Positions 42,241 through 60,577 are shown, numbered from the stretch's first letter. The stretch is DNA of 64,000 nucleotides from an uncultured Actinomycetes bacterium (GCA_964547485.1 CAZJNU010000002.1:33771-97770); one strand, 5' to 3'. Numbers and translations: made by a program. The notes: generated from the sequence alone by a model not told the origin.

Positions 42241-42493
42241 TGACGACCTTCCGTACGAGAGTGGCGGATTCCTGTCCGGTGTGGCGGAATCCGTACGTGA
42301 TCTGCACTGGGCGCCCAGTGCACCTGTGACAGAAGTCAATGCAGGATGAAGCGGATGCATTGGCAGATCGATACAGTCAACATTGCTCTGGGCATGACGA
42401 AGGACGAGCTGTCAAGGCTGTCCCACTGCTACAACGATGTCACATCCCCGGGTATTCCGTGGCGACTGACCCACCTGAATCGCCACGGGGCTG

Positions 42494-43883: not shown

Positions 43884-44047
43884 GGACCTAAGAATAGTCG
43901 GCAGACCGGACCCGAATCAGCATCGAATGCCGCCTGTGTCGGCCTACCAGCCCCATCGCCCGGTGACCCTGGGCAATCGGAATTCCGCGCCACTAGTACC
44001 AATGGCCGCCACCAGTGGTCCGTCCGGACATTGGACACCATCTGCAA

Positions 44048-44076
44048 TGGCCATACTCCTCACCCCTATGCATAAT
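44048..44076 (+). promoter_or_regulatory. Candidate sigma-70-type promoter for the giant-protein operon
   Basis: TGGCCA (44048-44053), a 17-bp spacer, then CATAAT (44071-44076). It lies inside the only AT-rich patch of the 284-bp intergenic region (tatgcataataaacatg, 44067-44083). Confidence 0.3.
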
Positions 44077-44129
44077 AAACATGCCTGTTCACTCTTCTGT
44101 GGTCAGCCGCCCGGATGGGGCGAGACAAG

Positions 44130-44145
44130 GGTTGCCAAGGCAACC
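44130..44145. promoter_or_regulatory. Perfect 7-2-7 inverted repeat GGTTGCC-AA-GGCAACC just upstream of the RBS of the first giant gene
   Basis: Read directly from the sequence. It lies 10 nt upstream of GGAGGA (44155-44160) and 23 nt upstream of ATG 44168. Confidence 0.4.
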
Positions 44146-44167
44146 GGTGCGCGTGGAGGAGTGACTA

Positions 44168-47100
44168 ATGCCAGCAATGGTTCAGCGTGGGGTCGTCCGG
44201 GTGTTGGCCACCTGCTTGGCGACGGTAGTCGGCGCTACCGGGGCGATCGGGCAGGCTCAGTCGGCCATCGCGAGCACGGCGCGCTCAGCTGAACTGCCAG
44301 AGGTACCGGCGCGACTGGGTTCGGCCAAGTGGGGCGAGAATGCCGCCGGACTAGGTGGTGGTCCCGCCGCCCATTGGCGAGTGTCGGTCACGCCAGGCGG
44401 CACGGCCATCTGGGGCGCCGAAATGACAGCAGGTCTGCACCGAGTCCCAGCGGCGCGACTGGCGTTCACCGGCTTGCCAGCCGGGATGAGCCTCGCAACG
44501 TCGGGCTTGCCGAGAACGGTTGCGGGCAGCGAGGTGAACAAGGTGACGTCCTGCGCCCGCTCACCTGAGCGAACCATCTGCCAGCTAGGTGCACCACTTG
44601 CTTCTGGCAAGTTCGCAGTGTCCGCTGTCGCGGTGACAGCGGACCGCACTGTTCGGGAGGGGGACTACCCGATCTCGGTCGCACTGCTCGACGGCGACAA
44701 CGCGACGGCGGGGTCGACACAGTTCACTGTCCACATCCAGCGCGCTGTCAAGGACGCATTGTTCGTGCATTCCGGCGGCCAGCAACTGTCCGCCTTGGGG
44801 GCTCGGCAGGACCGCCGTATCAATGTGTTCAACCTGGGCGGATCCGAGAGCCGTGGTGCGATCCAACTATCGCTAGGCAACGTACTCCCTGCGCGGATAG
44901 CCAGGAATGTGTCGGCCCGCGGGGCTGGCTGGAACTGCCCGCCCGGACTGGCCGCGACACGCTGCACATACCGCACACCCGCCTTCGCGCCCGGCGATTC
45001 CGCACCGTCGCTGGAACTCAGCTACCGCGTGCCGCCAGCCGCGACAACCGGTCTGAAGCCACTCGACAGCGGGCACCGCTTTCGCTGGCAGATGGCCGTC
45101 ACCGGCGCCGCTCGGGTCCAGCCGACAACTCATGTCGAGACCGAGCACCTGCTGTCCAAGCCGACCACAACTCCCACCCGGCCGGCAAAAGTTGTCACCG
45201 GCCCCGGAAATATGATCGTCAAAGTAAATCATTTGGGACGCTCGCGGCTGGGCGGGATCGGGCTCTACCGGATCGCCGTCAACAACGGGGGCCGCCAGCC
45301 TGTCGTCGGCGCCCAGTTGCGAATCCAACCGCCAGCACACGCCTCGATTCTCCGGTTCGGTTCCGCCGTCGGGTGGCGGTGCTCGACAGCGGGAGTGTGC
45401 ACCCGCACCGGAGTCATCGCCTCGCACCGGGCCCCGCCGCCGATCGAGGTCGTGCTGGCCAGCAATGCCACCTCCAATAGGCAAGCATCCCAGCGACTCG
45501 CAGTGGTGGCATCGTGGGCCGGGGTTCGCGGCACCCGATCCTCGAACAGGGTGACCGCAACGGACTCTTGGGATCCTCTCCTTCAGGTGTCGACGGCCGG
45601 TTCGAGCGCACGGGTCCACGATCGCGCGGCTGCCGGTTCCAAGGGAATGCTCGTGTCTTCGGTCGCCGGGCTGGCGAAACAGAAGTACTCGTTCAATTGG
45701 ACCCAGGTCTGTCCGCCACGGGCGTGCGCCCGGGTCGCCTGGGACCAGACGCCACATGGCACTACTCCTCATCCAGGCAACTCGGTTGCCTTCACTCCAC
45801 CGGCGGTCAGACGGCCCACCGAGTTGAACTTCCAGCTTGTCGTCAAGGCGGCTGGTGCCGAGGTGCGCAGGCAGGTCAAGGTCACAGTATTCCCCTTCAC
45901 CCCAAAGGTCGATGCCCGACTTGGTACCACGAAGTGGCGCGAACCGAAATTCCCGGGTCGTGCCGATCGCTCAGTCCGACAGGGCACCGTGGTGCAACCC
46001 GGGGCCTCGCTTGTCATCAATGGCGCGGGTCGTACGTTCGCCCGGCCGGGGGACCGGGTCACGCTCCGAGTGGCAGTGCCCGGCCCTGCGGGTAACGCCC
46101 GTGATTTGCGGATCGCCTGGCGCGGGCATGGCGAGGCAAGTTCGCTGCTGGCTGGAGCCAAGGCGACCGACCGTGGCCGGCAACTCACCTTCATCCTGCC
46201 CCGCGGTCTGACACGCTCAGTTGTCCTCTCCGCCATCGCCAAGACGGGCAACCGGACCATCGCCGGGGGGTCAGAGATGATTGTCCCGAAATTGCCGCGG
46301 CCGAAACCGGCGACACTTTCCGCGGCCACCGCGAAACCCACCTCGCCTGCGGGGGCGACGTCGGCGTCTAAAGCCCGCAACCGCACCGCTGCCGCCAGCC
46401 CCAGTACGACCGCATTCTGCGCGATGTACACCGCGGCCAGGGCAGCCAACCTGCCATCAGTGCAGTTCGCGTCCGCAAACCTGACTCTGGGTACGGTCTC
46501 CGTCAGCGGTACCACCTGCACTGCGGCCGGCGCCACCATCACCTTCTCCGGAGGTCAGGCCCAGGCCGGCGGTATCGGACTCACCCAACTCGCCGGCACG
46601 ATCACGGCATCCGGGCTCACCGTCAACTCAGGCGTTCTGCAGCTACCGCAGGATCCGGCCGTGCCGGCCGGGCTGACGACCATTCCGTTCTCTAGCGGCA
46701 CGGGCGGGTTGGCGGCATTCGTCATCCCATTCGCCGGGAGCACGTTGGGCAGCCTGACCGGCACCATCAGTCTGTCGACGCTGCCGTACCTGCCGCTGCC
46801 GAAGGGCTGGGCGTTGACGAACCAGGCACCGCAGCTGTCGCAGTTGATCGTGATTCCAGCGCCGGGGGGCAGCGGCTATGCCGCGCAACTCACCGCGTAC
46901 GCCACCGGCCCCGACCAGGGGTCGGCCGCCGTCACCGGTCAGGTCAACACCGATGGCAGTTTCAACCTGTATGTCAGCGGCGCCAACATGTGGCCACTGA
47001 CCGGGTCCGACGGCTCCACCGCAGTCTTCAGCGGCGCCGGCACCGTCTCCCGCGCCGTAGGTCAAGGAGTCGCCTACGACGCCTCGATGGAGATGGTCAC

Positions 47101-50100
47101 CAAGCATGCGGCCTTCCCCCTGTACGGCGGCTTCTCGCTGCAGAATGCCAGCCTCACCTGGACAAACAGCGGACTGGCCGCAAATGCCACCGGGATCGCC
47201 GTGATCGGCGGCCAGAACCACAACTTCTCCGTCACCGGCCAGCTCACCGATTTCCACAACTGGTCGCTGACGGTGCAATCCAGCGAAAGCATCGCGCTGA
47301 CCTACCTGAACCTGGACAATCTCGGCGGGTCGATCTCGATGACCAAGGTTGGCCGCAACCCGAGCGTGCTGGCGATCGACGTCTTCGGCCAGGCAGTGAT
47401 CGGTCCGGCCACCCTGACCAAACTCGGCCTGACCGTCAACACCGCCACCGGGCACGTCGGCATCTACTGCAACAACGTCGCGCAACTCCCGCAGAACGCC
47501 CGGGATGCCTGCCAGAACAAGACGCTGCAACTGCAGTTGGATGTCACCGGATCTGCCACCTTGTTCGGCAAGGTCCTACCGATCGACGCCACCGCCAACG
47601 CTAATATCACCGACGGGTCGTTCAACCTGCAAGCCGCGATCCAGAACACCGCGTTCGGGCCCAAGACCCTGAACCTCTCGGATATCACGTTCTTCGCGAC
47701 CGACAACGCCCAGAACGCACCCGAACTGGTCGGAAATCCCTGCATGAGCGACCCGTCGCTGGCAAATCGCAACAACATCTTCGGGTTCACAGCGACCTAC
47801 AATGCCGGCAACGGGTTCACCGGAACCGCCACCGGCGTCTACAACACAAGTTTCCCCGACGCCGCAGATAACACCGGCTATTGCCTGTCCGCCGCAGTCG
47901 CGCAGGGCCAGGCGAACACCGAGATTCCCGGCTCGATGGGCAGTTTCAGCAATGACACCACGTTCATCTACTCGTCCTACCCGACGACCGTCACCATCAA
48001 CAACACCCAAACCATCGTCAACCCGCAACAGGCCACGGTGCTCGGCAATTTCACCTTGCCAGCCGCGGTGCAAAACTTCCTCAGCACCCCGCAGATGGAC
48101 AACGTGCTCGCGGAACTGACGCTGGGCGGGGCGACCTCCTCAGCCAGCCTGACGGCGAGCCTGCCGGAGACGAGCTACATCGTCGGTGATGCCACCTCCG
48201 CCACCAGCCTGCAGATGCAGAGCGCGGGGGTGGTCGTGGGCAAGGTCAACGGTGCGTGGAGTTTCGGCGTCAACCTGGCCGCGCAACTCAAGACACCGGG
48301 CTCACCAGGGACCGACCCGACCAGCACTACCGCGACGGTCCAGAACGCCGTGGCGCCGGGCACGGTACCGGTCAGCGGCAGTCTGATGTACGCCCCCTCG
48401 TCCGGTGCGATCACGATGTCTGCGGAGATCGGCAACGGCACGGTCATCAATGACGCCTTCGGCTTTGACGGATTTGACCTCGAGGCGTTCAAGGTGATGG
48501 CGTCCGTCGGCGGGGAGCCCAAGGACGACTTCGTCGGCGTCAGCGCCAATGTGCTGACCCCGGACAACAACAGTTCCACCTTCGGCAAGATCACCGAGGA
48601 CATCGGCCTGCAGCCCAACACCGACATCAGTTTCGCATTCCAGTTGTCCGAGACCTCGCCCTGCTACGCCATCCAGATCGGCAACCCGAACCCTGCCCAG
48701 CAGACGCTCGCGATCAGTTGGTTCGACGTAATTGAAGCGAATTTCGTGCAAATGTACTTCGCGCCGAACGGCTGCGCGGTAGAGACCACCGCATTGCCGA
48801 GTTCGGGCTACGCGTTCGACTTTGACGGCGCGATCCTGGGCACGCCGACGAAGATCAATGGCGAGTTCTCCACCGGACCAGGCGCCCTGTTCAGTGGTTC
48901 GTTGACCATCAACGTCGGGTCATTCTCACTTGCCGGTATCGATGTCCAGAACACCGTCATCGATCTGACCTTCGCCGACTACCCGACCCAGAAGTTCGAC
49001 CTGCAGTTCAGTGGCGGCATCAATATCTGGGGGGCCATCCAAATCCAGGCCTCCGGAGACATCGACATCGAGGCGGGTACCGCTCCCGGCGTCGGGAACG
49101 CGCACGCAAAGGTCAGACTCAACGCCACCCAGAATGAAGACCTCTTCGGAATCTTCACCGAGAACATCGCGTTCGGCTTCGAATGTGACTGGGAGATGCC
49201 TGACAACGCCGCGCCCTACTTTGGTTCGTTGGACATGTCGCTCAGCGCCAGCGTAAAAGTGTTGGTATTCACCGGATCGGCCAGTGCCTGGTTCGACTAC
49301 GGCCCGATGATGGTCAATGGCGCCTCCCAGAACATCGTCACCTCGATGGGCGCCTCCTTCAGCGCTGGGATAAACCTGTGGATCGCGGGGATCACCGCCA
49401 ATGTCACGTTGTGCTACGTCCGCCCGTCCAACCAACAGGCCGACTGCAGCCAGCCGATCGTCCCCGTCTCCGGGACTCCGGTGGCCACCGGATCCGATGG
49501 AGAGTTGCATGTGAATGTCTCCGGCACGTTGCACTGGTGGTTGTTCGGCGAGCACTCCGAGACCATCAACATCCTGGCAACGACAATCCCGATCCACTTC
49601 GCCAATCCTCAATATGCGGCGCCCGCACCTGCCCAATATGCCCCGCCGGCGGCGCCGCAGAACACCTGGCCGAACCCGTCTTGGCAGTACTCGACCAACA
49701 TGTACCTGAACGTGCCGTGGGACCCGAACGAACTCGCCAACGCGGCCGGCGGGTCTGGCGCTGCGGTTTCCGTCGACCCGGGCCATCTGGCCGACACCTT
49801 GGGTGTCGCCACCGACCCGACCACGGTTCCGGCCCCCGTGTTCGACCCGCAGGGAACCGTCACCCTTGGCAACAGCACGGACGGTTCCGACAGCGCCAGC
49901 ACAGTCACCGGCAACGTTCCGCTGCCCGCCACGCCGACCTACCAGCAACTAGTGGCGGACTATCAGCAGTACGTCGGCCCGAATCTTCCTGCCAATCTGA
50001 AATCGCAATCGCACTGCGCAGGGTCTACCTCGAAGTCGTTCTCGGTGGAGGTACCGCAGTGGAATGGCGGCCATCCGGTATCCGCAAGCAATGCGTCATT

Positions 50101-50515
50101 CCTGGTGGCCGACATCAACTGGCGGATGTACCTGGCGTCGGTCGTGGAGGCTAGCTCGATTCAGGGTGATCGCGGCGGCGCCGTCACCAACCCGAGGATT
50201 CGCGCCATCAAGCAGGCACAGAACTACAAGTGCGGCTACGCAAACTGGGACAGCTTCCCGGCAGTGCAGACTTGGCTTACCTCGAACTCGGTGGGGCCAC
50301 AGTTCAACCTCGCCTACCCGCAACCCATCACCAACACGACCACAGACCAGCAGCTCTGCCAGTCCGATGGTGACTATCCCAACGGCGACTTCGCCGCGGC
50401 CTGCGCCACGAACCTACCGCTGCTGAACTCCAACCCGGCCCAGCCGTGGGGATCCGGCTGGGGACAGTCCGCAGACCCGACGCCCAACTGGGGTGGCGGC
50501 TCGGGCTCCGGCTGA
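44168..50515 (+). CDS. Giant secreted protein 1 (2,115 aa): signal peptide, Arg-rich Ig/DUF11-like N-terminal third, then a long N/T/S/G/Q-rich region of unknown fold
   Basis: RBS GGAGGA is present. The signal peptide is MPAMVQRGVVRVLATCLATVVGATGAIGQAQSA. DUF11-like modules include ...GAGWNCPPGLAATRCTYRTPAFAPGDSAPSLELSYRV (nt 44810-45037) and ...SAVGWRCSTAGVCTRTG... (nt 45200-45463). A PKD/Ig-like pattern is YSFNWTQV...VAFTPPAVRRPTELNFQLVVKAAGAEVRRQVKVTV (nt 45680-45898). The reading frame is uninterrupted for 6.3 kb. Confidence 0.85.
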   Translation: MPAMVQRGVVRVLATCLATVVGATGAIGQAQSAIASTARSAELPEVPARLGSAKWGENAAGLGGGPAAHWRVSVTPGGTAIWGAEMTAGLHRVPAARLAFTGLPAGMSLATSGLPRTVAGSEVNKVTSCARSPERTICQLGAPLASGKFAVSAVAVTADRTVREGDYPISVALLDGDNATAGSTQFTVHIQRAVKDALFVHSGGQQLSALGARQDRRINVFNLGGSESRGAIQLSLGNVLPARIARNVSARGAGWNCPPGLAATRCTYRTPAFAPGDSAPSLELSYRVPPAATTGLKPLDSGHRFRWQMAVTGAARVQPTTHVETEHLLSKPTTTPTRPAKVVTGPGNMIVKVNHLGRSRLGGIGLYRIAVNNGGRQPVVGAQLRIQPPAHASILRFGSAVGWRCSTAGVCTRTGVIASHRAPPPIEVVLASNATSNRQASQRLAVVASWAGVRGTRSSNRVTATDSWDPLLQVSTAGSSARVHDRAAAGSKGMLVSSVAGLAKQKYSFNWTQVCPPRACARVAWDQTPHGTTPHPGNSVAFTPPAVRRPTELNFQLVVKAAGAEVRRQVKVTVFPFTPKVDARLGTTKWREPKFPGRADRSVRQGTVVQPGASLVINGAGRTFARPGDRVTLRVAVPGPAGNARDLRIAWRGHGEASSLLAGAKATDRGRQLTFILPRGLTRSVVLSAIAKTGNRTIAGGSEMIVPKLPRPKPATLSAATAKPTSPAGATSASKARNRTAAASPSTTAFCAMYTAARAANLPSVQFASANLTLGTVSVSGTTCTAAGATITFSGGQAQAGGIGLTQLAGTITASGLTVNSGVLQLPQDPAVPAGLTTIPFSSGTGGLAAFVIPFAGSTLGSLTGTISLSTLPYLPLPKGWALTNQAPQLSQLIVIPAPGGSGYAAQLTAYATGPDQGSAAVTGQVNTDGSFNLYVSGANMWPLTGSDGSTAVFSGAGTVSRAVGQGVAYDASMEMVTKHAAFPLYGGFSLQNASLTWTNSGLAANATGIAVIGGQNHNFSVTGQLTDFHNWSLTVQSSESIALTYLNLDNLGGSISMTKVGRNPSVLAIDVFGQAVIGPATLTKLGLTVNTATGHVGIYCNNVAQLPQNARDACQNKTLQLQLDVTGSATLFGKVLPIDATANANITDGSFNLQAAIQNTAFGPKTLNLSDITFFATDNAQNAPELVGNPCMSDPSLANRNNIFGFTATYNAGNGFTGTATGVYNTSFPDAADNTGYCLSAAVAQGQANTEIPGSMGSFSNDTTFIYSSYPTTVTINNTQTIVNPQQATVLGNFTLPAAVQNFLSTPQMDNVLAELTLGGATSSASLTASLPETSYIVGDATSATSLQMQSAGVVVGKVNGAWSFGVNLAAQLKTPGSPGTDPTSTTATVQNAVAPGTVPVSGSLMYAPSSGAITMSAEIGNGTVINDAFGFDGFDLEAFKVMASVGGEPKDDFVGVSANVLTPDNNSSTFGKITEDIGLQPNTDISFAFQLSETSPCYAIQIGNPNPAQQTLAISWFDVIEANFVQMYFAPNGCAVETTALPSSGYAFDFDGAILGTPTKINGEFSTGPGALFSGSLTINVGSFSLAGIDVQNTVIDLTFADYPTQKFDLQFSGGINIWGAIQIQASGDIDIEAGTAPGVGNAHAKVRLNATQNEDLFGIFTENIAFGFECDWEMPDNAAPYFGSLDMSLSASVKVLVFTGSASAWFDYGPMMVNGASQNIVTSMGASFSAGINLWIAGITANVTLCYVRPSNQQADCSQPIVPVSGTPVATGSDGELHVNVSGTLHWWLFGEHSETINILATTIPIHFANPQYAAPAPAQYAPPAAPQNTWPNPSWQYSTNMYLNVPWDPNELANAAGGSGAAVSVDPGHLADTLGVATDPTTVPAPVFDPQGTVTLGNSTDGSDSASTVTGNVPLPATPTYQQLVADYQQYVGPNLPANLKSQSHCAGSTSKSFSVEVPQWNGGHPVSASNASFLVADINWRMYLASVVEASSIQGDRGGAVTNPRIRAIKQAQNYKCGYANWDSFPAVQTWLTSNSVGPQFNLAYPQPITNTTTDQQLCQSDGDYPNGDFAAACATNLPLLNSNPAQPWGSGWGQSADPTPNWGGGSGSG

Positions 50516-50542: not shown

Positions 50543-53500
50543 ATGACCAACCCCGCACCTGACATCCGACCCGCTAGCACGGGTCACCGCGATCGAACCC
50601 AGCTGCGCCGAATGTCGCCCGTCCTCGGGCTGACCGCAGCGGCTGCGCTGATCTTCGCGCCACTGACGTCGGCCTCAGCTGCAACTCCCCCGCCGGCACC
50701 GTCGCCGTCGGCAACTGGTCCGGCCGCACGGCCGGACCAGGATACGGTCGCCACCCGGACTACTTCACCCGCCGCCAGCCCTACCACCACCACGCCACCA
50801 CCAAAGCCCGCAGCACCGAAGCCCCCCGCCAAACCCACCCCAAGGACGCCGACCGGGCCCGTCCCGCCGTCGCGGGTCGGCGCTCGCGGGGAGGTGACCG
50901 CGCCTGCCACGGCTGGAATCCGCGTCACAGATATCAAGTTGGTCGGCAACGGTCGCGCCATCTCTGCGATTGTCCGCTGGAACCGCGCGCTGATCGCGCT
51001 GCCCGGCAACCACGACCAGTTCCGGATCCGGCTGACAGGATTCCCGGCCAACTCCAATCGACCGGTGACCTTCGGGCAACTGGCTTTTAACCGGGTCCCG
51101 GCCGCCGTTCAACGCGTGACACTACCGCTCACGCCGGTGAAACTGCGGCAACTCCGTGCCGCCGCGGACGTTGTCCTGAGCGCCTCCCAGCACTACGACG
51201 GGCCTGATCGGAACGCATCCTTCGAACGCACCCACGTCGCCACCACCCACCTCAACACCCTGCTGCGCCCCCGGCCCCGGTCAGCCGGGGTTGGCGGCCG
51301 AATCACCGCAACCGCAGCCCTGGCGCTGCGTGACTGTACCGGGGTGCTGATCGGCCCTGGCGCGGATCTGCGGAGATGCGATCTGCGAGGTGCGCAACTA
51401 CAGGGCGTCAACCTCACGAACGCGCTACTGCAACGGGCGGACTTCATCGGCACCAACCTTTCCGGCGCGGTGTTCACCGGAGCGCAAGTCAACGGCGCGT
51501 TCTTCGGTGGCGCCACCGGGGTCAACCTGGCCGGGGCGATCGGTATCCCGGCGGCCGCCGGGGCCACCCCGGCCAACCCGAACCCGTCGCCGGCGGGCCC
51601 CCGGGTGACCTCGATATCGCCACCGTCGGGTCCTGTGGCCGGCGGCACGACCGTGACCATCGTCGGCACCGGGTTCGTTCCGGGCGCCAGCGTCACCGTC
51701 GGCGGGGTACCCTGCTCAGACTCCGCATGGAAGAATCCGACCACCTTGAGATGCACGACCGGAGCCCACGCTCTCGGGGCCGCCGACGTCGTCGTCACCA
51801 ACCCGTCAAACGCCGAAACCGGCACCCTGAGTGCCGGTTTCACCTACACCAAGGGTGCACACCTGTTCTGGGCCGGCGCGCTGGGCGACTCAGCCTGGCT
51901 CGGCCGCGCGGACATCGAAGGGTCGAACCCGAACAACTCCTTCGTCAACGTCAACCCGAACGGCGGTTCCTGGGCGCAGGACGTGGCCACCGACGGGACC
52001 TACCTCTACTGGGCCGACATGAACGGCAACCAAATCGGCCGGTCAAATCTGGATGGTAGCGGTGTCAATTCCGGTTTCATCACCGGCCTCTACCAACCGA
52101 CAGGTGTAGCTGTCCAGGACGGGCAGATCTTCTGGGCCACCAGTGGCGCTATCGGGGTGGCGAACCTCGACGGCAGCAACGTCAACCAGGGTCTGGTCCA
52201 GACCAACACCGACGTCCAGAATGTGAACGGCGGTTGGGACGTTGCGGTGGACGACCAATTCGTCTACTGGACCAACAACCAGGACAGCAACGAGAACGCG
52301 AACGCCGGGACTACGATCGGTCGCGCCAACCTCGACGGAAGTAACGCCAACCCCAACTTCATCAACAACGCATTCGGTCCTCGCGGCCTGGCCGTCGACG
52401 GCGGTCATCTGTACTGGACCAACACCGCCGATCCCAATGTCAACGGACAGAGCCAATTCAGCATCGGACTCGCGAACCTCGACGGCAGCAACGCCAACGC
52501 GACCTGGTTGACAGGTATGCCGTCGGTGCAGGCGATGACGGTCGACGGCGGGTACGTCTACTGGGTGGACGTAGTCAGCAACTCGATCGGCCGAGCGGCC
52601 ACCGACGGATCCGGGATCAACACGACCTGGCTCGCTGCGGTCCAGAACCTGCAGGGTGTCGGCACCGACCTCACCCCTTTCCCGAAATCGCTGTCGACAA
52701 CCAGCGGATCCGAGGCTGGCGGCACCGAGGTGACCATCGCCGGCTTCGGATTCGACCCAGCGGCCACCGTCACCATCGGCGGAGTGGACTGCCCCCGCTA
52801 CACCGGCAGTTGGACAACCATCACCTGCGTCACTGGCGCGGCCCCGGCCGGTGCCGCCGACGTCGTGGTGACGAACCCGCGCTCGCAGGCCGGGCTCCTA
52901 CCCCAGGCATTCACCTTCCAGTCGGGGCCGCCACCAACGCTGAGTATCAGCGGTATCACCCCGGTCAGCGGGTCGGCACTCGGCGGCACTCCGGTCACCA
53001 TCTCCGGCGCCGGGTTCCTGCCCGGAACCACCATCTCCGTCGGCGGGTCAGCATGTCGCAATCCGATAGTCTCCTCGGCCAGCCAGCTGACCTGCGTCAC
53101 CTCCGCGCACCAACCGGGGCCTGCCGACGTGGTGGTGACCAACCCACAGGGACCCGGCCCCGCAGGTACCGCAAACCTGGCCGCCGGCTACACCTTCGTG
53201 CAGTCTCCACCGACGGTGACCCAGATCAGCCCTGCGGCAGGAAATGTGGCCGGTGGTACCCAAGTCATCGTCACCGGTACCCATTTCGCCCCACAAGCCA
53301 CGGTGACCATCGGCGGCGTCCCGTGTGCCCGGTTGGTGGTGGTCGCGCTGACCTCGCTGACCTGCAGCACCGGCGCCCACGCGACGGGACCGGCTGACGT
53401 TGTGGTGACCAACCCGGACGGCTCGACCGGGACATTGCCGGCCGGCTTCAGCTACAACTACGCGCCGCCGGTGGTCCAATCGATCAGTCCAACCGCAGTG

Positions 53501-56500
53501 CTGAGCACCGGCGGCGTGCCGTTGACCATCACCGGAAACGGCTTCCTGCAGGGGGCCACCGTCGCACTGAACTACAACAACGGCACTGGCGGTCCCAACC
53601 GGACAGGCGACTGCGCCATCACCCAAATCGCCTCGGCTTCGATCACTTGCACGATGGCTCCCAACTTCGGCGTCGGGGTGCAGGCAGACGTAGTCGTCAC
53701 GAACCCGAACGGTAAGCAGACCACGTTGAGCCAGGCGCTGACCCTCAACCCGAATACGACACCCACCATCACCGCCGTGCAGCCGAATTCCGGTCCCGTC
53801 ACCGGCGATACGCCTGTCACCGTGACTGGTTCCGGTTTCTACGGCAATTCCGAATCGACTGGCCTCACCGTCTCGATTGCCGGTCAACCCTGCACGATCA
53901 CCGGGGCAGTCCAGGCCGACACGCTCACCTGCACGACCGGCAGCAACAACTTCAACTCCGCCACGGGTGGTCCGGGACCATTCGACGTCTCAGTCGCCAC
54001 GACGTTTCAGTTCGCATCCGGCAGTCAGGCGACCGGAAACGCAACCTTGCCTGCCGGATACACCTACCTGAATACTCCGCTGCTCACCTCCGTCTCCCCC
54101 GCAGTCGGGTGGACGATGGGCGGTTCGCAGCTAACCCTTACCGGCGCCGCGATCGTCGACGGCGCAACAATCACGGTCGGAGGAATACCCTGCACCGACC
54201 CGACGGACGTCTCGCCCCAGGCAGATCCTGACGCCGCAATTGCGAGCGTCTGGACTTGTGTCACCGGCGGCCACGGGCCGGGCCCGGTTGATGTCGTGGT
54301 TACCAATCCCGACGGCATCACGTCCACCCTTCCGGGTGGGTATGGCTACCAGGACCCGGATGTCCAGCTGACAGGTATCAGTCCCGCCACTGGGTCAACC
54401 TTGGGCGGGACGCCGGTGACCATCAGCGGATCCGATCTGGTCGACGGCAGAGCGGGCTCCTCGGTAAAGGTGGGAGGGTCCCCCTGTGTGAATGCAACCT
54501 GGTCGGGGAACTCCATCACCTGCACCACCACCGGCCCGCAACCGGCAGGACCGGTCGATGTCTCGGTGAACGATGCCAGCGGACGGTCGGACACCCTGCC
54601 TCAGTCCTTCACCTTCGCTGAGGTTGCACCGCAGGTCCTGACCACGTCGCCGAACCAGGGCTCGGTGACCGGCGGCACAACTGTGACCGTGGCCGGCACT
54701 GGCTTCGAGCAGGGCGCGATCGTCACCGTCGGCGGCTACACCTGTGACGTCGGGGCAATCACGGCGCAGTCGCTGACCTGCGCCACCCATGCACATCCGG
54801 CTGGCACCGTCGACGTGACGGTGACCAATCCGAGCGGCCTGTTCGGGACCCTGACAGACGGTTTCACTTTCGCCATGCAGGTAACGGGGATGAACCCAAG
54901 TTCGGTCTCCACCCTGGGCGGCGCGCCACTGCAACTCACCGGGGGCGGGTTCGCCCAGGGCGCAACAGTCAGCATCGGTGGCCAGAGTTGCGAGGACCCT
55001 GCGATCACACCCACCGCCATCAGTTGCACCACGCCCGGCCTGGCCGTCGGTCAGTACCCCGTGGTGGTGACCAACACCAACGGACAGACTTCGCAGTGGT
55101 CCTCACCACTGGCGGCAGCCATCCCGACCCCGACAGTCACCGGAGTCTCGCCGCCCAGTGGATCCAACCTCGGCGGCGCAACCGTCACCGTGGCCGGCAC
55201 CGGCTTCTACGACGCAACCACGGTCCAAATCGGCGGCTCGGACTGCGCCAACGTCGAGATCAGCAACCAAACTTCCCTGACCTGCCAGACGACCGGGTAC
55301 CACCCCACCGGGACAGTGGACGTCGTGGTCACCAATCCGGGCAATCCCAGTGGAACCCTGGCTGGCAGCTACAGCTTCCTCGCGGCCACCCCCAACGTCG
55401 TGTCGGTGAGTCCGACGTCAGGTGCGGTTGCCGGGTCCACCCAAGTCACGATCACAGGGACGAACTTCGATCCAGCCGCAACCGCCACCATCGGCGGCGC
55501 CCAATGTGCCAATCCCAGCGTCAGCGCCGACTTCAGCCAACTGAGTTGCAGCACCGGCGTCAGCGAAGCTGCCGGGCCAGCGGACGTGGTGGTCACCAAT
55601 CCCACCTGGAAATCCGACACCGGCAGCGGCCTGTACACGTTCACCGCCAATCGACATCTCTTCTATGGCAACGTCGGTTCCGTGCCCTACTACGGTGGCG
55701 GCACGATCGGGAACCTCGGCCGGGCCAAACTGGACGGCAGCGAAGCGGACCCGAACTACATAGACGTCAATCCCGGCGTCACCGACCCCACCCAGCAAGT
55801 AGAGGACAGCAACCCGGTGGCCAGCGGTGGATTCGTGTATTACATCACCGGAAACGGATCAGTCGGTCGGGTAGGTCTGGACGGTTCTGACCTCAACAAC
55901 AACTGGATTTCGGGCGCTACCTACCCGGGGGTGGAATCTCAACTGGCGTTGGACGCCCAGTACATCTACGTCACGAACCAGAACAACGGCAACGGCGCGA
56001 TCGGACGGTTCAACCTAACCGACGGCAGCCAGGCGGGATTTGGCTCGACGACGGGGGACCAGTTCATCTCCGGGCTTAATACCCCGAGCGCAGTGGCCGT
56101 CAGTGGCGGCGCCATCTACTGGGGTGACTCCGGCACCGGGCAGATCGGCTCCGCGCTGTTGCCGGCAGCCGATGACACCAGCAACGGACCCGGTAGCATT
56201 AGCACGTCCCTGTTCACAGTCTTTTCGCCTGACTCGACTCAAGCCGAATTCACTGCGATGGCTGTCGGCTGGGTGAGTGAGTTGAACACCGATGGTGGCC
56301 TCTACTGGTCGCTGTCCACCATGACCGGCACGAACTCCTCGACGGCGTCTATCGGGATTGCCCCGATCACCCCGGGCAGCCCCGGCACGATCTTCACCGT
56401 CATCACCAACACTTCCTTGATCAGCGGACTCGGCATGGCAAACGGCCTCGCCGCCGACGGGCAGTACCTCTACTGGACCGGCACGAACAACGTCGAGCGC

Positions 56501-59500
56501 GCCGATTTGTCCAGTGGCAGCCTCTTCAACGACAATCTTCCGCTGACCGTTGACCGGAACTTCATCACCAACACCGTCAGCCCGGACGGCGTCGCCGTCG
56601 TACCCGAACCGTCGGCGGCGGATACGCCTGCTATCAGCCAATTCTCGGCGAACTCGCCGCAGGTGGGACCGGCCACCGGCGGTACCGTGGTCACGTTGCA
56701 GGGCTCCGGCTTCCTCGCAAACTCACGGATCACGTTCGGCGGACTGCCGTGCCCCCTGCTGACCACGGCGACCAATACCGCCACCTCGCTGACCTGCGTG
56801 ACACCAGCTCATCCGGCCGGCAGCGTCGATGTTGTGGTGGCCAACCTGAACGGTCAAACCACCGTGGTGTCTAGCGGCTTCAACTATCTCGCCGCCTCCT
56901 ATCTCTACTGGGTGGATACCAGCACCGGATCGGCCACCATCGCACGATCCAACCTCGATGGCACCGGCATCAATCCGACGTTTGCAGCAGCGGATTGTGG
57001 CGGCGCTCCGAACTGTACAACCGTGCCTGGGATGGCCCCATCCTCGCTGGCGGTCGACGACAACAACGTCTACTGGATTAATGCTGCGCCCGGTGACGAT
57101 TCGACAGCCGCCTCCATCGGCAGCATCGGGCTGGACGGATCCAACCCGAACAACAACTTGATCCCGAACGTGGACAATTCAAGCCTCGATGGCGGCGTCA
57201 TCGCCGCCGGCGGCGGACGCATCTACTGGATCAACTGCAACGATCCAGAGGACTTCGCCTGCACCCAGACCATCGGCGCAGCCGATATGGACGGCAAGAA
57301 CGTCAACTACTCCTTCATCCAGACCACCGGGGTCGCCGGCGGGATCACATCATTGGCCGCCGATAGTTCCGGCATCTACTGGGCCGATGGTGATGGGACC
57401 GGCCAGGTGATGTGGGCCGACCTCAACGGCCAGAACATAAATGCCACCTACTTGCCAGCCAATGTCACCGCCTACTCAGACACCACCTACGACGATTCCG
57501 GGGGTGAGATCGACCACGACGTCATGACCAAGCACGTGTCCATCTCCAACGGCCAGATCTACTGGGCCGGCTCAGGAATTGAAAACACCTATCTGGGTTC
57601 AGCGACTATCGGAGCCTCCGGCCCGACCAATATCGTGTATCCACTGCAGACGTTCGCCGACGGGGGCACCGCCCAGTTGACCGCCAATGCCCAACGGCTG
57701 TACTGGTGGAGTCCGAACCAGAACGGCGGCAACAGCACCGGCATGTCCACCATCGGCGGCGTCACCATCAATCCCAGCATCATGACCGATACTGGTGCCC
57801 CGGTGGTTTCACCGTCCGCGTTGTCGGCTCCCCCGCAAGTCACGACCGTCTCGCCGGTTGGCGGCTCCACTCTCGGTGGCACGTTGGTGACGATTTCGGG
57901 TACCGGTTTCCAACAGGCGACTAACACGGTGACCATCGGCGGTGTGCCATGCGCCAACGTGACGCCCAGTTCACCGACCTCGCTGACCTGCACCACCGGC
58001 GTCCACACCGCCGGGCCCATCGACTATGGCCCCGCCGACGTGACCGTCACCAACCCGGACACCCAATCCGGCACCCTCACAGGGGGGTACGACTACTCTC
58101 CCCCCACCCCCACGATCGGCGCCGTCAACCCCGGCAGTGCGCTGTTCCTGGGAGGTCAACAGATCGCGATCAACGGTGCCGGCTTCGACTCAAACCTGAC
58201 CGTGATGCTCGGGAACACACCGTGCTCGATCGCCCCTGGAAACGTCACCCCCACGACGATCACCTGTACCCCCGGTAACAACCAGGTCGAGCAGGTCGTG
58301 GACGTGGTCGTGAATAACGGAGACGGCAAACTGGCCACGAAGGCCCGTGGGTTCACCTTCGCTGGCTACGCCCCTACGGCCGACCCCCAGAGCCCATTGA
58401 CGCCGACCACGGCTCCACTCAACGGCGGAACCATCCTGACGATCACAGGTGGCTACTTCGATCAGAACGCGCAGATTACTGTCGGCGGCTCTCCATGCCC
58501 GCAGATCAGCGGCGGCTCCGGCCAAGGCAGCCCCCAATCCACCCTCCTGTGTCAACTACCCGCGGGCACTGCCGTCGGTCCCGCCACGGTTGTGGTCGCA
58601 AACCCGGACGGCCAGCGCATCAGCCTGCCGGGGGCCGACTCCACCGCCACCTTCAGTTACGGGCCGCCGAACCCATCGATCAGCAGCGTCACAACGGCTG
58701 CCGGGGAGAGTTTCGGCTCGACTGGCGGTAACTACCGGGTGACGGTTGCCGGGACCTCGTTCGGACAGAACCCAAGTGTCATGGTCGGAGCGCAACCATG
58801 CGTGAACCCTGTGCTGGCCGGAAGTACAGTCAGCTGCCGGGTTCGGCCACACTCCGCGGGGCCGGTCGATGTCGTCGTCACCCGAGCCGACGGCCAGTCC
58901 GCGGTCCTGACAAGGGGCTTCACGTTCGTGGTAGAAACCCCGACCCTGACCTCGATAAGCCCAGCAGCCGGTAGTTCAACCGGGGGTACACCGGTGACGG
59001 TCAGCGGAACCGGTTTCGACCCCGCCGCCACAGTCTCACTCGGAGGGGCAATCTGTGGACAGGTACAGATCGGTGGGCAGGCGTCCCTCAGTTGCGTCAC
59101 TGGCGGGGACATGGTCGGCCCAGCCGACCTGGTGGTGACCAACCCGGGCGGCCTCAGTGCGACGCTACCGGGCGCGTTCACCTACGGAGGTTGGGGTCCA
59201 GGCCCCTCCCCACAACCGCTGAGCATCACACCGAGTACCGGCACCCCGGGCGGGGGTGAGTCAGTGGCGATCTCGGGCAATTTCCTCGGGGTCGTGCCAA
59301 CCGACGTCACCGTCACGATTGGTGGGGTGGGCTGTCAGGTGACTACGACGACCGGATCCAGCCTGAACTGCACCACCGGTCCCCATCCGCTCGGTGTCGG
59401 CGACGTCGTAGTCACGGCCGTGGCCAACCTGGCAACCGGAACCCTTCCGCAAAGCTTCACCTACGCCACCGTCGTCCCTCCCACTGTGACCTCTATCTCC

Positions 59501-60577
59501 CCGTCCGAGGGCACCTTCCTCGGGAGAACGCCGGTGACCATCACCGGCACGGGATTCATGGCCGGCGCGGACGTCAAGATCGGCACCGCCAACTGCCGGA
59601 ATCCGCAGGTCACCAGCCCGACCACGGTGACCTGCACGACCGGTCGCTCGCAGTTGAGTCCGGACTCCTCTGCGCTGGCGGCGAAGGTCGTCGTGACCAA
59701 CTCGGACCAGCAGGCCTCCACCGATCCGGTGACCTACAGGTACACCCCCGGTGGCAACCTGTTCTGGTCCAACGGTGGGGCCAGCCCGCAGTCCATCGGT
59801 CAGGCCGCCGTTGGCAATACCGGGACCGACCACTCCTACACACTTCCGTCCGGGGTGGGGATGCTGGGCGGCATCGCGGCCGACGACCGCTATGTCTACT
59901 GGGCAGATCAGCTCAACGCCAGTATCGGCCGAGTCCCGATCGACGATCTGGCAGGGGAACAGGCTCAACCGAAGTGGATTGACCTGTCCAGCGTCTCAGC
60001 CACCCCGATGTCCGTTTCGGTCAGTGGCGGCTACATCTACTGGGCCGATAGTTCCAACGACCAGATCGGTCGGGCAACACTGGCCAACCCAGGTTCCACA
60101 GTGGCGTACAATTTTGTGTCCGGGAACGCCTTGAACTCCCCCTACGGTGTCGCGGTCGACAACGCCTACATCTACTGGGCAAACCACGGCGACTCCACGC
60201 TGGCTCGGGCATACCTGGCCAACGGGTCGCTGCCGACGGCCATCCACACGGTCAGCAACGGCCATAACCCAAGCGGCGTCACCGTAAGTGGCGGCCAGTT
60301 GTACTGGACGGCCCAGACTGCTGCCGGCACCGGCGGCTCGCTCGGCCGGGCGAACCCTGATGGTTCCAATCCAACCGACTCTTTCGTCGGGAATACCGGC
60401 GCCGGCAACGTAGCGTCGTTCAACAGCCCGCAGGGACTCGCCGCGGCCGGTTCGACGCTCTGCTGGGCGAATTCCGGCGGAACCAGCCTCGGAGCGGCAA
60501 ACCTCGCGGACGGGTCCAGCCCCGACGGCAACTTCATCGTCGGCGCCAACGCACCGCAGGGCGTCGCCGTGAACTGA
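50543..60577 (+). CDS. Giant secreted protein 2 (3,344 aa): pentapeptide repeats, 20 IPT/TIG-like modules and 4 YWTD-type six-bladed beta-propellers
   Basis: It starts 27 nt after gene 1, with RBS AGAGGA. The signal-like segment is RRMSPVLGLTAAAALIFAPLTSASA, followed by a Thr/Pro linker. The repeat modules were read and counted manually (see sub-features). The frame is uninterrupted for 10 kb. Confidence 0.88.
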   Translation: MTNPAPDIRPASTGHRDRTQLRRMSPVLGLTAAAALIFAPLTSASAATPPPAPSPSATGPAARPDQDTVATRTTSPAASPTTTTPPPKPAAPKPPAKPTPRTPTGPVPPSRVGARGEVTAPATAGIRVTDIKLVGNGRAISAIVRWNRALIALPGNHDQFRIRLTGFPANSNRPVTFGQLAFNRVPAAVQRVTLPLTPVKLRQLRAAADVVLSASQHYDGPDRNASFERTHVATTHLNTLLRPRPRSAGVGGRITATAALALRDCTGVLIGPGADLRRCDLRGAQLQGVNLTNALLQRADFIGTNLSGAVFTGAQVNGAFFGGATGVNLAGAIGIPAAAGATPANPNPSPAGPRVTSISPPSGPVAGGTTVTIVGTGFVPGASVTVGGVPCSDSAWKNPTTLRCTTGAHALGAADVVVTNPSNAETGTLSAGFTYTKGAHLFWAGALGDSAWLGRADIEGSNPNNSFVNVNPNGGSWAQDVATDGTYLYWADMNGNQIGRSNLDGSGVNSGFITGLYQPTGVAVQDGQIFWATSGAIGVANLDGSNVNQGLVQTNTDVQNVNGGWDVAVDDQFVYWTNNQDSNENANAGTTIGRANLDGSNANPNFINNAFGPRGLAVDGGHLYWTNTADPNVNGQSQFSIGLANLDGSNANATWLTGMPSVQAMTVDGGYVYWVDVVSNSIGRAATDGSGINTTWLAAVQNLQGVGTDLTPFPKSLSTTSGSEAGGTEVTIAGFGFDPAATVTIGGVDCPRYTGSWTTITCVTGAAPAGAADVVVTNPRSQAGLLPQAFTFQSGPPPTLSISGITPVSGSALGGTPVTISGAGFLPGTTISVGGSACRNPIVSSASQLTCVTSAHQPGPADVVVTNPQGPGPAGTANLAAGYTFVQSPPTVTQISPAAGNVAGGTQVIVTGTHFAPQATVTIGGVPCARLVVVALTSLTCSTGAHATGPADVVVTNPDGSTGTLPAGFSYNYAPPVVQSISPTAVLSTGGVPLTITGNGFLQGATVALNYNNGTGGPNRTGDCAITQIASASITCTMAPNFGVGVQADVVVTNPNGKQTTLSQALTLNPNTTPTITAVQPNSGPVTGDTPVTVTGSGFYGNSESTGLTVSIAGQPCTITGAVQADTLTCTTGSNNFNSATGGPGPFDVSVATTFQFASGSQATGNATLPAGYTYLNTPLLTSVSPAVGWTMGGSQLTLTGAAIVDGATITVGGIPCTDPTDVSPQADPDAAIASVWTCVTGGHGPGPVDVVVTNPDGITSTLPGGYGYQDPDVQLTGISPATGSTLGGTPVTISGSDLVDGRAGSSVKVGGSPCVNATWSGNSITCTTTGPQPAGPVDVSVNDASGRSDTLPQSFTFAEVAPQVLTTSPNQGSVTGGTTVTVAGTGFEQGAIVTVGGYTCDVGAITAQSLTCATHAHPAGTVDVTVTNPSGLFGTLTDGFTFAMQVTGMNPSSVSTLGGAPLQLTGGGFAQGATVSIGGQSCEDPAITPTAISCTTPGLAVGQYPVVVTNTNGQTSQWSSPLAAAIPTPTVTGVSPPSGSNLGGATVTVAGTGFYDATTVQIGGSDCANVEISNQTSLTCQTTGYHPTGTVDVVVTNPGNPSGTLAGSYSFLAATPNVVSVSPTSGAVAGSTQVTITGTNFDPAATATIGGAQCANPSVSADFSQLSCSTGVSEAAGPADVVVTNPTWKSDTGSGLYTFTANRHLFYGNVGSVPYYGGGTIGNLGRAKLDGSEADPNYIDVNPGVTDPTQQVEDSNPVASGGFVYYITGNGSVGRVGLDGSDLNNNWISGATYPGVESQLALDAQYIYVTNQNNGNGAIGRFNLTDGSQAGFGSTTGDQFISGLNTPSAVAVSGGAIYWGDSGTGQIGSALLPAADDTSNGPGSISTSLFTVFSPDSTQAEFTAMAVGWVSELNTDGGLYWSLSTMTGTNSSTASIGIAPITPGSPGTIFTVITNTSLISGLGMANGLAADGQYLYWTGTNNVERADLSSGSLFNDNLPLTVDRNFITNTVSPDGVAVVPEPSAADTPAISQFSANSPQVGPATGGTVVTLQGSGFLANSRITFGGLPCPLLTTATNTATSLTCVTPAHPAGSVDVVVANLNGQTTVVSSGFNYLAASYLYWVDTSTGSATIARSNLDGTGINPTFAAADCGGAPNCTTVPGMAPSSLAVDDNNVYWINAAPGDDSTAASIGSIGLDGSNPNNNLIPNVDNSSLDGGVIAAGGGRIYWINCNDPEDFACTQTIGAADMDGKNVNYSFIQTTGVAGGITSLAADSSGIYWADGDGTGQVMWADLNGQNINATYLPANVTAYSDTTYDDSGGEIDHDVMTKHVSISNGQIYWAGSGIENTYLGSATIGASGPTNIVYPLQTFADGGTAQLTANAQRLYWWSPNQNGGNSTGMSTIGGVTINPSIMTDTGAPVVSPSALSAPPQVTTVSPVGGSTLGGTLVTISGTGFQQATNTVTIGGVPCANVTPSSPTSLTCTTGVHTAGPIDYGPADVTVTNPDTQSGTLTGGYDYSPPTPTIGAVNPGSALFLGGQQIAINGAGFDSNLTVMLGNTPCSIAPGNVTPTTITCTPGNNQVEQVVDVVVNNGDGKLATKARGFTFAGYAPTADPQSPLTPTTAPLNGGTILTITGGYFDQNAQITVGGSPCPQISGGSGQGSPQSTLLCQLPAGTAVGPATVVVANPDGQRISLPGADSTATFSYGPPNPSISSVTTAAGESFGSTGGNYRVTVAGTSFGQNPSVMVGAQPCVNPVLAGSTVSCRVRPHSAGPVDVVVTRADGQSAVLTRGFTFVVETPTLTSISPAAGSSTGGTPVTVSGTGFDPAATVSLGGAICGQVQIGGQASLSCVTGGDMVGPADLVVTNPGGLSATLPGAFTYGGWGPGPSPQPLSITPSTGTPGGGESVAISGNFLGVVPTDVTVTIGGVGCQVTTTTGSSLNCTTGPHPLGVGDVVVTAVANLATGTLPQSFTYATVVPPTVTSISPSEGTFLGRTPVTITGTGFMAGADVKIGTANCRNPQVTSPTTVTCTTGRSQLSPDSSALAAKVVVTNSDQQASTDPVTYRYTPGGNLFWSNGGASPQSIGQAAVGNTGTDHSYTLPSGVGMLGGIAADDRYVYWADQLNASIGRVPIDDLAGEQAQPKWIDLSSVSATPMSVSVSGGYIYWADSSNDQIGRATLANPGSTVAYNFVSGNALNSPYGVAVDNAYIYWANHGDSTLARAYLANGSLPTAIHTVSNGHNPSGVTVSGGQLYWTAQTAAGTGGSLGRANPDGSNPTDSFVGNTGAGNVASFNSPQGLAAAGSTLCWANSGGTSLGAANLADGSSPDGNFIVGANAPQGVAVN
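51338..51547 (+). repeat. Pentapeptide-repeat block (aa about 266-335 of giant protein 2)
   Basis: CTGVLIGPGADLRRCDLRGAQLQGVNLTNALLQRADFIGTNLSGAVFTGAQVNGAFFGGATGVNLAGA, with A(D/N)LxG-type 5-residue periodicity. Confidence 0.75.
51599..51850 (+). repeat. IPT/TIG-like module 1 (single)
   Basis: RVTSISPPSGPVAGGTTVTIVGTGFVPGASVTVGGVPCSDSAWKNPTTLRCTTGAHALGAADVVVTNPSNAETGTLSAGFTY. Confidence 0.8.
51851..52678 (+). repeat. YWTD/LDL-receptor-class-B-like six-bladed propeller 1
   Basis: Six blade starts: HLFWAG, YLYWAD, QIFWAT, FVYWTN, HLYWTN, YVYWVD. Each is followed by xIGRxNLDGSxxN. Confidence 0.75.
52685..55648 (+). repeat. Array of 11 tandem IPT/TIG-like modules
   Basis: Eleven units of about 85-105 aa share (I/V)SPxxGxxxGGTxVTIxGxGFxxGAxVxIGGxxCxxxxxxSxTxLTCxTxxHxxGxxDVVVTNPxGxxxTLxxxFTY. 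Confidence 0.8.
55649..56608 (+). repeat. Six-bladed propeller 2 (most degenerate)
   Basis: Blade starts: HLFYGN, FVYYIT, YIYVTN, AIYWGD, GLYWSL, YLYWTG. Two blades carry long insertions. Confidence 0.6.
56624..56893 (+). repeat. IPT/TIG-like module (single)
   Basis: ISQFSANSPQVGPATGGTVVTLQGSGFLANSRITFGGLPCPLLTTATNTATSLTCVTPAHPAGSVDVVVANLNGQTTVVSSGFNY. Confidence 0.78.
56894..57802 (+). repeat. Six-bladed propeller 3
   Basis: Blade starts: YLYWVD, NVYWIN, RIYWIN, GIYWAD, QIYWAG, RLYWWS. Confidence 0.7.
57830..59749 (+). repeat. Array of 7 tandem IPT/TIG-like modules
   Basis: Seven units with the same consensus and the same conserved Cys pair as the 11-unit array. Confidence 0.78.
59750..60574 (+). 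repeat. Six-bladed propeller 4 (C-terminal end of the protein)
   Basis: Blade starts: NLFWSN, YVYWAD, YIYWAD, YIYWAN, QLYWTA, TLCWAN. The protein ends ...APQGVAVN with no anchor. Confidence 0.72.

Follow-up and report, generated by a model that had tools for sequence, protein, structure and literature searches.

The surface-layer (S-layer) proteins of Lactobacillus, among them L. brevis SlpA, L. acidophilus SA and L. crispatus CbsA, are secreted polypeptides devoid of a covalent anchor. In SlpA the N-terminal region of high isoelectric point (pI) is the experimentally mapped wall-binding domain, the low-pI remainder being exposed and self-assembling, and in the L. acidophilus group teichoic acids are bound by the cationic regions of these proteins (PMC2571106). 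Fibrillar adhesins represent another group of bacterial surface proteins; their stalks typically contain DUF11, now named CLIPPER, a CnaA-like immunoglobulin (Ig) domain in many representatives of which the intramolecular Lys-Asn isopeptide bond is absent (bioRxiv 10.1101/2025.04.25.650565). This report describes ORF1 (open reading frame 1), a gene for a giant secreted protein of 2,115 amino acids (aa), and the adjacent partner giant ORF2, both found in a 64,000-nucleotide (nt) stretch of DNA from an uncultured freshwater Actinomycetes bacterium (GCA_964547485.1, CAZJNU010000002.1:33771-97770), hereafter the window. ORF1 occupies positions 44168-50515 as a single intact frame with an ATG start and is supported as a gene by homologs and by selection (features lie on the plus strand unless stated otherwise). 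Tentatively, and with slightly less than even confidence, ORF1 is regarded here as a sortase-independent surface fibre, the cationic N-terminal stalk of which would sit in the anionic wall and which would work together with ORF2. A literature search on giant actinobacterial surface proteins retrieved nothing about the ORF1 family.

Like the Lactobacillus S-layer proteins, ORF1 is secreted, has no covalent anchor and combines a contiguous high-pI region with a low-pI remainder (pI 11.55 in aa 34-705, as against 4.14 in aa 746-1815 and 4.26 in aa 1816-2115), a layout that is conserved; the basic region lies at the N terminus, as it does in L. brevis SlpA. Unlike them, it shows no sequence similarity to this group, is about five times larger and is paired with a second giant, and its basic part is an Ig-like DUF11/PKD array followed by a novel beta region. 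Judged by analogy, this charge design is the closest experimentally grounded counterpart of ORF1. With the DUF11/CLIPPER and PKD fibrillar adhesins the protein shares a signal peptide, tandem Ig-like modules, giant size and, in its relatives, lectin heads. It differs from them in the lack of an LPXTG, OmpA-like or other sorting domain, in the presence of only two or three DUF11-like modules (its own copies falling under the Pfam threshold), in that half of it is a non-repetitive domain instead of a repeat stalk and in a polarity that is probably reversed, with the anchor at the N-terminal end.

Export is indicated by a Sec-type signal peptide at aa 1-33 (44168..44266) with a basic n-region, a hydrophobic core and an AQS-A site. 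It is the sole hydrophobic segment of the protein (the top Kyte-Doolittle windows all fall within aa 3-30) and equivalent signal peptides are present in the homologs. Neither an LPXTG motif nor a C-terminal hydrophobic or anchor segment was found in ORF1 or ORF2 when the combination of LPXTG, hydrophobic stretch and basic tail was tested.

A preliminary description of the locus, made by a model from the sequence alone, had proposed that ORF1 is split abruptly into an Arg-rich front and about 1,370 aa nearly devoid of Arg and Lys, and the composition and pI values of the segments agree on this point. Arg and Lys account for 9.4% and 2.6% of aa 1-705 and for 0.8% and 1.5% of aa 746-2115 (1,370 aa with a total of 11 Arg and 20 Lys), where Asn reaches 7.2% and Asp 4.5%. 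Counted per 100-aa window, Arg amounts to 6-14 residues up to aa 700 and to 0-2 across aa 751-1950; the cytoplasmic neighbours of ORF1 contain 5-10% Arg and 1-2% Asn. A model with two rates of Arg plus Lys places the maximum-likelihood break at aa 739 (nt ~46384), with a log likelihood (lnL) of -424.0 versus -466.5 for a single rate (2*delta lnL ~85, far beyond chance), so that the sharp boundary expected near nt 46400 is indeed there. The break lies within a linker rich in Pro, Lys, Ala, Thr and Ser (aa 707-745, 46286..46402), PKLPRPKPATLSAATAKPTSPAGATSASKARNRT, which begins at aa 707 (nt 46286), exactly where it had been located; the other motifs quoted in the description were all retrieved from ORF1 too. 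The length of this linker differs among the homologs, and the charge switch thus coincides exactly with a low-complexity segment of variable length. A gene fusion or a mosaic generated by horizontal gene transfer was ruled out as the cause of the split, as the homologs are all co-linear and the guanine-plus-cytosine (GC) level is even along the gene (0.63-0.66, in a window of ~65% GC). Nitrogen economy was ruled out as the cause of the depletion, Asn and Gln being enriched.

The same layout is seen in ORF2 (50543..60577), a protein of 3,344 aa identified through Pfam, NCBIfam and its gene adjacency. It comprises a signal peptide and a linker rich in Pro, Thr and Ala, a basic domain in which aa ~270-330 form a pentapeptide-repeat segment, 20 IPT/TIG domains and several beta-propellers of the YWTD type (LDL-receptor class B), as denoted by matches to PF01833 (x20), PF00058 and NF058597 (CoaZ_rpt_PGGG, choice-of-anchor Z repeats, E 1.3e-86). 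These matches relate ORF2 to IPT/TIG and YWTD giant surface proteins and to the choice-of-anchor Z repeat proteins; unlike all of these, it bears a basic pentapeptide-repeat N-terminal zone, lacks a recognisable C-terminal anchor and is strictly coupled to the ORF1 family. The basic zone covers aa 1-345 (50543..51577; 9.3% Arg, pI 11.8), and the rest of the protein (aa 346-3344) contains 1.3% Arg and 0.5% Lys with a pI of 4.05. The N parts of ORF1 and ORF2 show no sequence similarity to each other. A basic N part followed by an acidic remainder recurs in the ORF2 homologs of seven other loci (those of four homologs, and L009, L011 and L015). Two unrelated secreted proteins encoded in related metagenome-assembled genomes (MAGs) are zoned in this way as well, namely a 748-aa pentapeptide protein of locus L011 and an fn3/YHYH protein of locus L013.

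A search of 5.8 billion clustered proteins with the whole of ORF1 yielded no more than five homologs, all of them full-length and co-linear with 34-86% identity. In these homologs Arg plus Lys makes up 12-18% of the N part and 2-3% of what follows it. Arg and Lys replace each other freely among them, which shows that charge and not residue identity is the conserved feature of the split. Among 38 relatives at a greater distance nearly all have a basic N part, and the remainder of the protein carries a net negative charge or none. The core is depleted of Arg and Lys in 23 of these; the other 15 hold 5-10% Arg plus Lys, balanced by more Asp and Glu, which shows that the structure of the core does not require depletion. 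The implied idea that the depletion is the mark of a special fold does not survive these data, nor does it agree with ORF2, which is equally depleted over ordinary TIG and YWTD domains. Since a non-homologous protein repeats the split over such domains, the Arg/Lys-poor composition marks a zone of the protein and not a fold, and what is conserved is a cationic proximal zone plus an anionic distal zone.

The fact that every distal domain is depleted whatever its fold (TIG, YWTD, ricin tails, beta core) also lends itself to an explanation with no electrostatic orientation, in which the depletion would chiefly protect against extracellular proteases of the trypsin type or reflect a general habit of cost or composition in secreted proteins, the basic N part being protected by burial or serving, for example, to bind DNA or minerals. 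A 1,056-aa secreted protein of locus L006 that is depleted with no basic N part fits this possibility, as does the level of Asn, 4-6 fold over that of the cytoplasmic neighbours, which points to a general secreted-protein bias. It leaves unexplained, however, the sharp boundary sitting on a linker and the concentration of positive charge (12-19% Arg plus Lys) in the non-homologous N parts of both partners, and the enrichment in Asn and Gln excludes nitrogen saving; on balance this alternative is considered unlikely.

On profile evidence the basic N part of ORF1 is Ig-like and appears to hold five or six modules of the DUF11/CLIPPER and PKD types. Two modules with the GxGWxC...C signature had been singled out as DUF11-like, and this assignment holds at the family level. 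DUF11/CLIPPER-like module 1 (aa 196-335, 44753..45172; G252-W255-C257...C266) and module 2 (aa 345-500, 45200..45667; W403-C405...C411) are homologous to each other (hhalign 97% probability, E 1.2e-10; 92% in a tile-based comparison). PF01345 is matched by 10 of 22 orthologous segments of module 2 (best E 1.3e-6), and weak DUF11 matches in homologs P0008 and P0004 fall at the position of this module. ORF1 itself gave no match to PF01345 (gathering score 24.6 bits) at E <= 1; because only the orthologs match and the ORF1 copy stays below the threshold, its modules are regarded as divergent DUF11 relatives and not as certified members. They are preceded by a basic domain (domain A, aa 40-195, 44285..44752), conserved in alignment A1, that resembles module 2 (hhalign 50% probability, E 1.6e-4) and is possibly a third, degenerate DUF11-like module.

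The unit with the motif YSFNWTQ...LNFQLVV...VKVTVFP, described beforehand as PKD-like, corresponds to PKD-like module 1 (aa 500-582, 45665..45913) and the designation is supported from three sides: ORF1 aa 507-574 match K319L-like_PKD (PF22352) with 13.8 bits and E 0.059, under the 27-bit gathering score; PF22352 is matched by 10 of 24 orthologous segments (best 1.1e-5); and a PDB profile search with the family of this module retrieved KIAA0319L (6nz0, E 0.011). PKD-like module 2 (aa 610-706, 45995..46285) was located by means of the remote homolog P0042, whose K319L-like_PKD match (aa 934-1008, E 4.6e-14) maps to ORF1 aa 624-705 via alignments A3, A4 and A1.

The Arg/Lys-poor core (aa 746-1815, 46403..49612) could not be placed in any family in the preliminary description and it does lie outside the known ones, whether searched as a protein or as a profile: Pfam gave for ORF1 only Calycin_like at E 0.4, NCBIfam and a phmmer search of PDB gave no matches, and the core profile (alignment A2) had zero matches in PDB at E <= 10. 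AlphaFold2 with 25 aligned sequences produced a model of this region with a mean predicted local distance difference test (pLDDT) of 78.4, a value of 70 or more for 832 of its 1,085 residues and a predicted template modelling score (pTM) of 0.45; an earlier run with 5 sequences had reached a pLDDT of 59.7 and gave nothing significant by Foldseek. The model contains 56% strand and 7% helix, with 51 predicted strands of at least 6 residues, many of them of 12-18, mostly linked by short turns into what would be a continuous antiparallel meander. The strands are amphipathic (alternate-face hydrophobicity difference 2.35 versus 1.41 +/- 0.16 in shuffled sequences). Four Cys pairs are invariant in the core, which fits an extracellular location, and locally paired Cys, typical of extracellular proteins, are kept across the ORF1 homologs. 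According to the model, the core is an all-beta, antiparallel and non-repetitive domain or series of domains with no known structural relative, possibly with the shape of a beta-sheet rod.

A very long beta-solenoid (parallel beta-helix) stalk had also been suggested for this region; the Asn/Thr/Ser/Gly-rich composition and two similar DGSFNL motifs speak for it. These motifs do not mark a repeat: BLASTP self-comparison was empty at E <= 10 and tile-versus-tile comparison of profiles with hhalign gave no more than 16% probability anywhere in the region. The model shows consecutive antiparallel hairpins with strands of 9-18 residues, and neither a solenoid nor a beta-helix appears among the fold matches in PDB and BFVD. 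The solenoid is thus very improbable and effectively refuted.

The best match of the core model in PDB by Foldseek is the beta-belt of ApoB100 (9ea7, E 6.8e-6, prob 0.98, template modelling (TM) score 0.13, root-mean-square deviation (rmsd) 34 A), followed by LptD, ushers, porins and a Deinococcus S-layer barrel. With ApoB100 and LptD the predicted core would share a long run of up-and-down antiparallel amphipathic strands, and from this resemblance an amphipathic beta-belt or barrel-like sheet can be conceived that binds or enters lipid or hydrophobic surfaces (prey or host membranes, hydrophobic particles), the more so as amphipathicity is strong and is most marked in the 12-18-residue strands of aa 1547-1810. 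The TM scores of the PDB matches are 0.09-0.15 when normalised by query and do not exceed 0.31 when normalised by target (porins), and rmsd is 20-44 A; because TM is low and rmsd large, the matches reflect only local up-and-down geometry. Global TM to ApoB100 and LptD is ~0.1 with no sequence relation, and ORF1, unlike these proteins, is bacterial, extracellular, disulfide-bonded and highly polar, its core holding the four conserved disulfide pairs. Any two-layer beta-sandwich would be just as likely to have amphipathic strands, and the monoderm host has no outer membrane. A lipid-binding core is accordingly judged quite improbable. Identification of the core as an outer-membrane beta-barrel or as LptD itself was rejected, the TM scores lying well below the 0.5 taken as global similarity. 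A Foldseek search of the viral database BFVD gave no meaningful match (the best was a tail fibre, E 8e-4, TM 0.12), which argues against a phage-fibre origin.

An exhaustive profile search with the core among 1.84 billion representatives detected 177 clusters at E <= 1e-3, 61 of them at E <= 1e-30. The members are nearly all signal-peptide-bearing giants of 1.5-3 thousand residues from metagenomes; the few that are named are entries called 'hypothetical protein' from Acidimicrobiales and a ricin-lectin-domain protein of Ca. Nanopelagicales. In the 21 members that were scanned there was no Pfam or NCBIfam match on the core, the annotated flanks being PKD, DUF11, fn3 and C-terminal ricin-lectin domains. 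The core of ORF1 defines a new, unannotated family, recognised by a profile match of ~1,000 aa that follows a basic Ig-like N-terminal array in secreted giants. Ricin-type lectins stand at the C terminus of 5 of the 21 scanned members, remote relatives of ORF1, and this suggests that the binding end is distal to the basic end. One family protein, P0025, is three times longer than ORF1 (6,323 aa), its core (aa 808-1761) being followed by ~4,500 Arg/Lys-poor residues (1.6% Arg plus Lys). A ricin-lectin-tailed member with no partner (L008, 8656-16786) is encoded directly downstream of a GH18 chitinase gene, and a remote partner-less member (L013, 384-9072) lies two genes from a sortase; these contexts hint that members of other branches bind polysaccharides and are anchored by other means.

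After the core, a Pro/Ala/Tyr-rich linker (aa ~1816-1834, 49613..49669), read from the sequence and with pLDDT < 55 at the end of the model, leads to a C-terminal Trp/Cys-rich domain (aa 1831-2115, 49658..50512) that ends in PWGSGWG and has 44 invariant columns in alignment A5. The profile of this domain (A5) gave zero matches in PDB at E <= 10. A local hidden Markov model search of the family proteins showed that the ~280-aa domain ending in (A/P)WGxGWG is full-length only in the closest subfamily (P0001-P0014 and P0154); a database profile search, which retrieved only an identical 162-aa fragment and missed known homologs, is uninformative.

The presence of this head goes along with that of the partner. 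A pentapeptide-TIG-YWTD giant adjoins the ORF1 homolog in 8/8 loci with a WGxGWG head, in tandem downstream, upstream or divergently and with otherwise unrelated neighbours, and it is adjacent in 0/4 loci whose family member has another C terminus (ricin lectins included). Gene pairing is strict among the head-bearing members. In the window ORF2 follows ORF1 after a 27-nt gap in which neither a promoter-like nor a terminator-like site was found. At locus L011 (254-7747) the partner is split into two proteins: the first is the 748-aa protein, composed of pentapeptide repeats only (basic N part, then 14-18% Asn), and the second is a 1,735-aa pentapeptide-TIG-YWTD protein, the stop of which overlaps the start of the ORF1 homolog.

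Strict co-inheritance of the two genes, together with a pI layout like that of the Lactobacillus S-layer proteins (cationic wall-binding region plus low-pI assembly region, PMC2571106), would also suit two subunits of a self-assembling lattice or sheath, such as an S-layer-like coat or a matrix scaffold, with the basic N parts as anchors and the beta-meander body as the self-assembly domain instead of an adhesin stalk. The body could be a large amphipathic sheet in need of a partner surface, and Foldseek gave weak matches to the Deinococcus S-layer protein SDBC (8agd, E 9.9e-4; 7zgx, TM 0.15). These TM scores are at noise level, however, and S-layer subunits are normally of 40-200 kDa, highly expressed and far commoner in databases, whereas the ORF1 family is rare, as its five close homologs indicate. 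The lectin-headed relatives with no partner resemble adhesins. A lattice is therefore an unlikely, though not negligible, alternative.

In the surface-fibre explanation favoured here, ORF1 would be Sec-exported in a monoderm actinomycete and its signal peptide then cleaved, and the cationic N third (pI ~11.6) would be held non-covalently in the anionic cell-wall matrix as a basal stalk. The flexible Pro/Ala/Thr linker would be the exit point from the wall, and the acidic distal part (pI ~4.1), made up of an antiparallel beta-meander body of ~1,070 aa and the Trp/Cys-rich head of ~280 aa, would be repelled by the wall and hence project outward. The head would couple ORF1 to a co-transcribed ORF2 built on the same plan, with a basic N-terminal base and an acidic TIG/YWTD-propeller array, and the two proteins would jointly constitute an outward-facing binding or fibre layer. 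The explanation draws on the secretion signal with no other anchor, the conserved charge zoning, the Ig-like N part, the predicted antiparallel all-beta core and the gene pairing. From these features we infer that the N part is retained in the wall electrostatically (by analogy with the Lactobacillus proteins), that ORF1 is oriented with its N terminus proximal and its C terminus distal, that the two giants are in physical contact and that the role of ORF1 is adhesive.

Several points weigh against this explanation. Once the signal peptide is cleaved, a protein with no covalent anchor could simply be released. The 15 of 38 relatives with 5-10% Arg plus Lys indicate that extreme depletion is not obligatory in the family, and the L006 protein, Arg/Lys-poor with no basic N part, points to a habit, shared by secreted proteins across the lineage, that may account for some of the depletion. 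The AlphaFold2 model of the core reaches a pTM of only 0.45, and adjacency of the genes does not prove an interaction of ORF1 with ORF2. A more far-reaching joint reading, considered rather unlikely, is that the core represents a new fold class, a single non-repetitive antiparallel beta-belt with >50 amphipathic strands and no structural relative, and that ORF1 and ORF2 form a hitherto unknown two-giant surface organelle of uncultured freshwater actinomycetes. Its assembly and orientation would depend on charge zoning alone, with a cationic base and an anionic brush free of Arg and Lys, and would need no sortase, SLH, LysM or other known anchor.

ORF1 is under purifying selection. Relative to the 98%-identical strain L001, the codon changes amount to 25 synonymous versus 2 non-synonymous in aa 746-1618 and to 32 versus 14 in aa 504-745, the sole indel being an in-frame 3-nt event at nt 46355, in the linker. 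From this pattern it follows that the gene is functional and that the distal core is tightly constrained. The divergence from L001 over the compared segment (45677-49021) is very uneven, with ~19% of codons changed in aa 504-745 as against 3% in aa 746-1618. Recombination may account for this, or else selection on the basic Ig-like part may be relaxed or diversifying when compared with that on the core.

The core adds an unannotated domain family of ~1,000 aa (177 clusters, all of metagenomic origin) that includes proteins from Nanopelagicales and Acidimicrobiales MAGs, lineages that comprise abundant freshwater bacterioplankton, and a structural model of moderate confidence is now available where Pfam, NCBIfam and PDB offer nothing. 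The composition zoning is common to two non-homologous giants and recurs in further secreted proteins from these lineages, and this suggests a simple electrostatic rule by which surface proteins might be retained and oriented in actinomycetes with no recognisable anchors. Such a rule could be of use in topology prediction for many giant proteins from MAGs that are listed as 'hypothetical'. A concrete hypothesis of protein-protein interaction follows from the strict association of the WGxGWG head with the TIG/YWTD partner. Both the predicted core fold and the module of two giants are new; precedents exist for charge zoning as a principle.

Expression signals upstream of ORF1 include a Shine-Dalgarno sequence, GGAGGAG, read 6 nt 5' of the ATG (44155..44161), and a promoter-like site, TGGCCA-17-CATAAT, ~90 nt 5' of the gene (44048..44076). 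The latter was identified by a consensus scan (1 found versus 0.2 expected) and represents a match to the consensus only. On the opposite strand 5' of ORF1 are the genes for a universal stress protein (43476-43883), an EamA transporter and the principal sigma factor, and the remaining window is an ordinary actinobacterial chromosome (RecG, FakA, Ddl, M13 peptidase, ParE/GyrB, MMPL, DUF4192 and others). Rfam and tRNA scans of the window gave no matches. Regarding the host, the nearest named relatives of the topoisomerase subunit (73-76% identity) come from MAGs labelled Candidatus Nanopelagicales or Actinomycetales, and a fragment of ORF1 at 98% identity was found in a river MAG labelled Actinomycetota.

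Three further features of the neighbourhood were noted. A 349-aa ORF (43243-44292, plus strand) overlaps the opposite-strand universal stress protein and EamA genes as well as the start of ORF1; it matches no family and almost certainly reflects the high GC level rather than a real gene. The principal sigma-70 factor (40729-42360, minus strand) carries a Lys/Ala-rich N-terminal extension of ~240 aa that matches the histone-H1-like HC2 family weakly (E 2.8e-6, below the Pfam cut-off). Finally, a 794-aa ORF (34588-36972, minus strand) with a signal-peptide-like N terminus, no Pfam match and a pI of 4.5 overlaps the MMPL transporter gene (36969-40031) by 4 nt; it appears to be translationally coupled to this gene and may encode an uncharacterised MMPL-associated exported protein.

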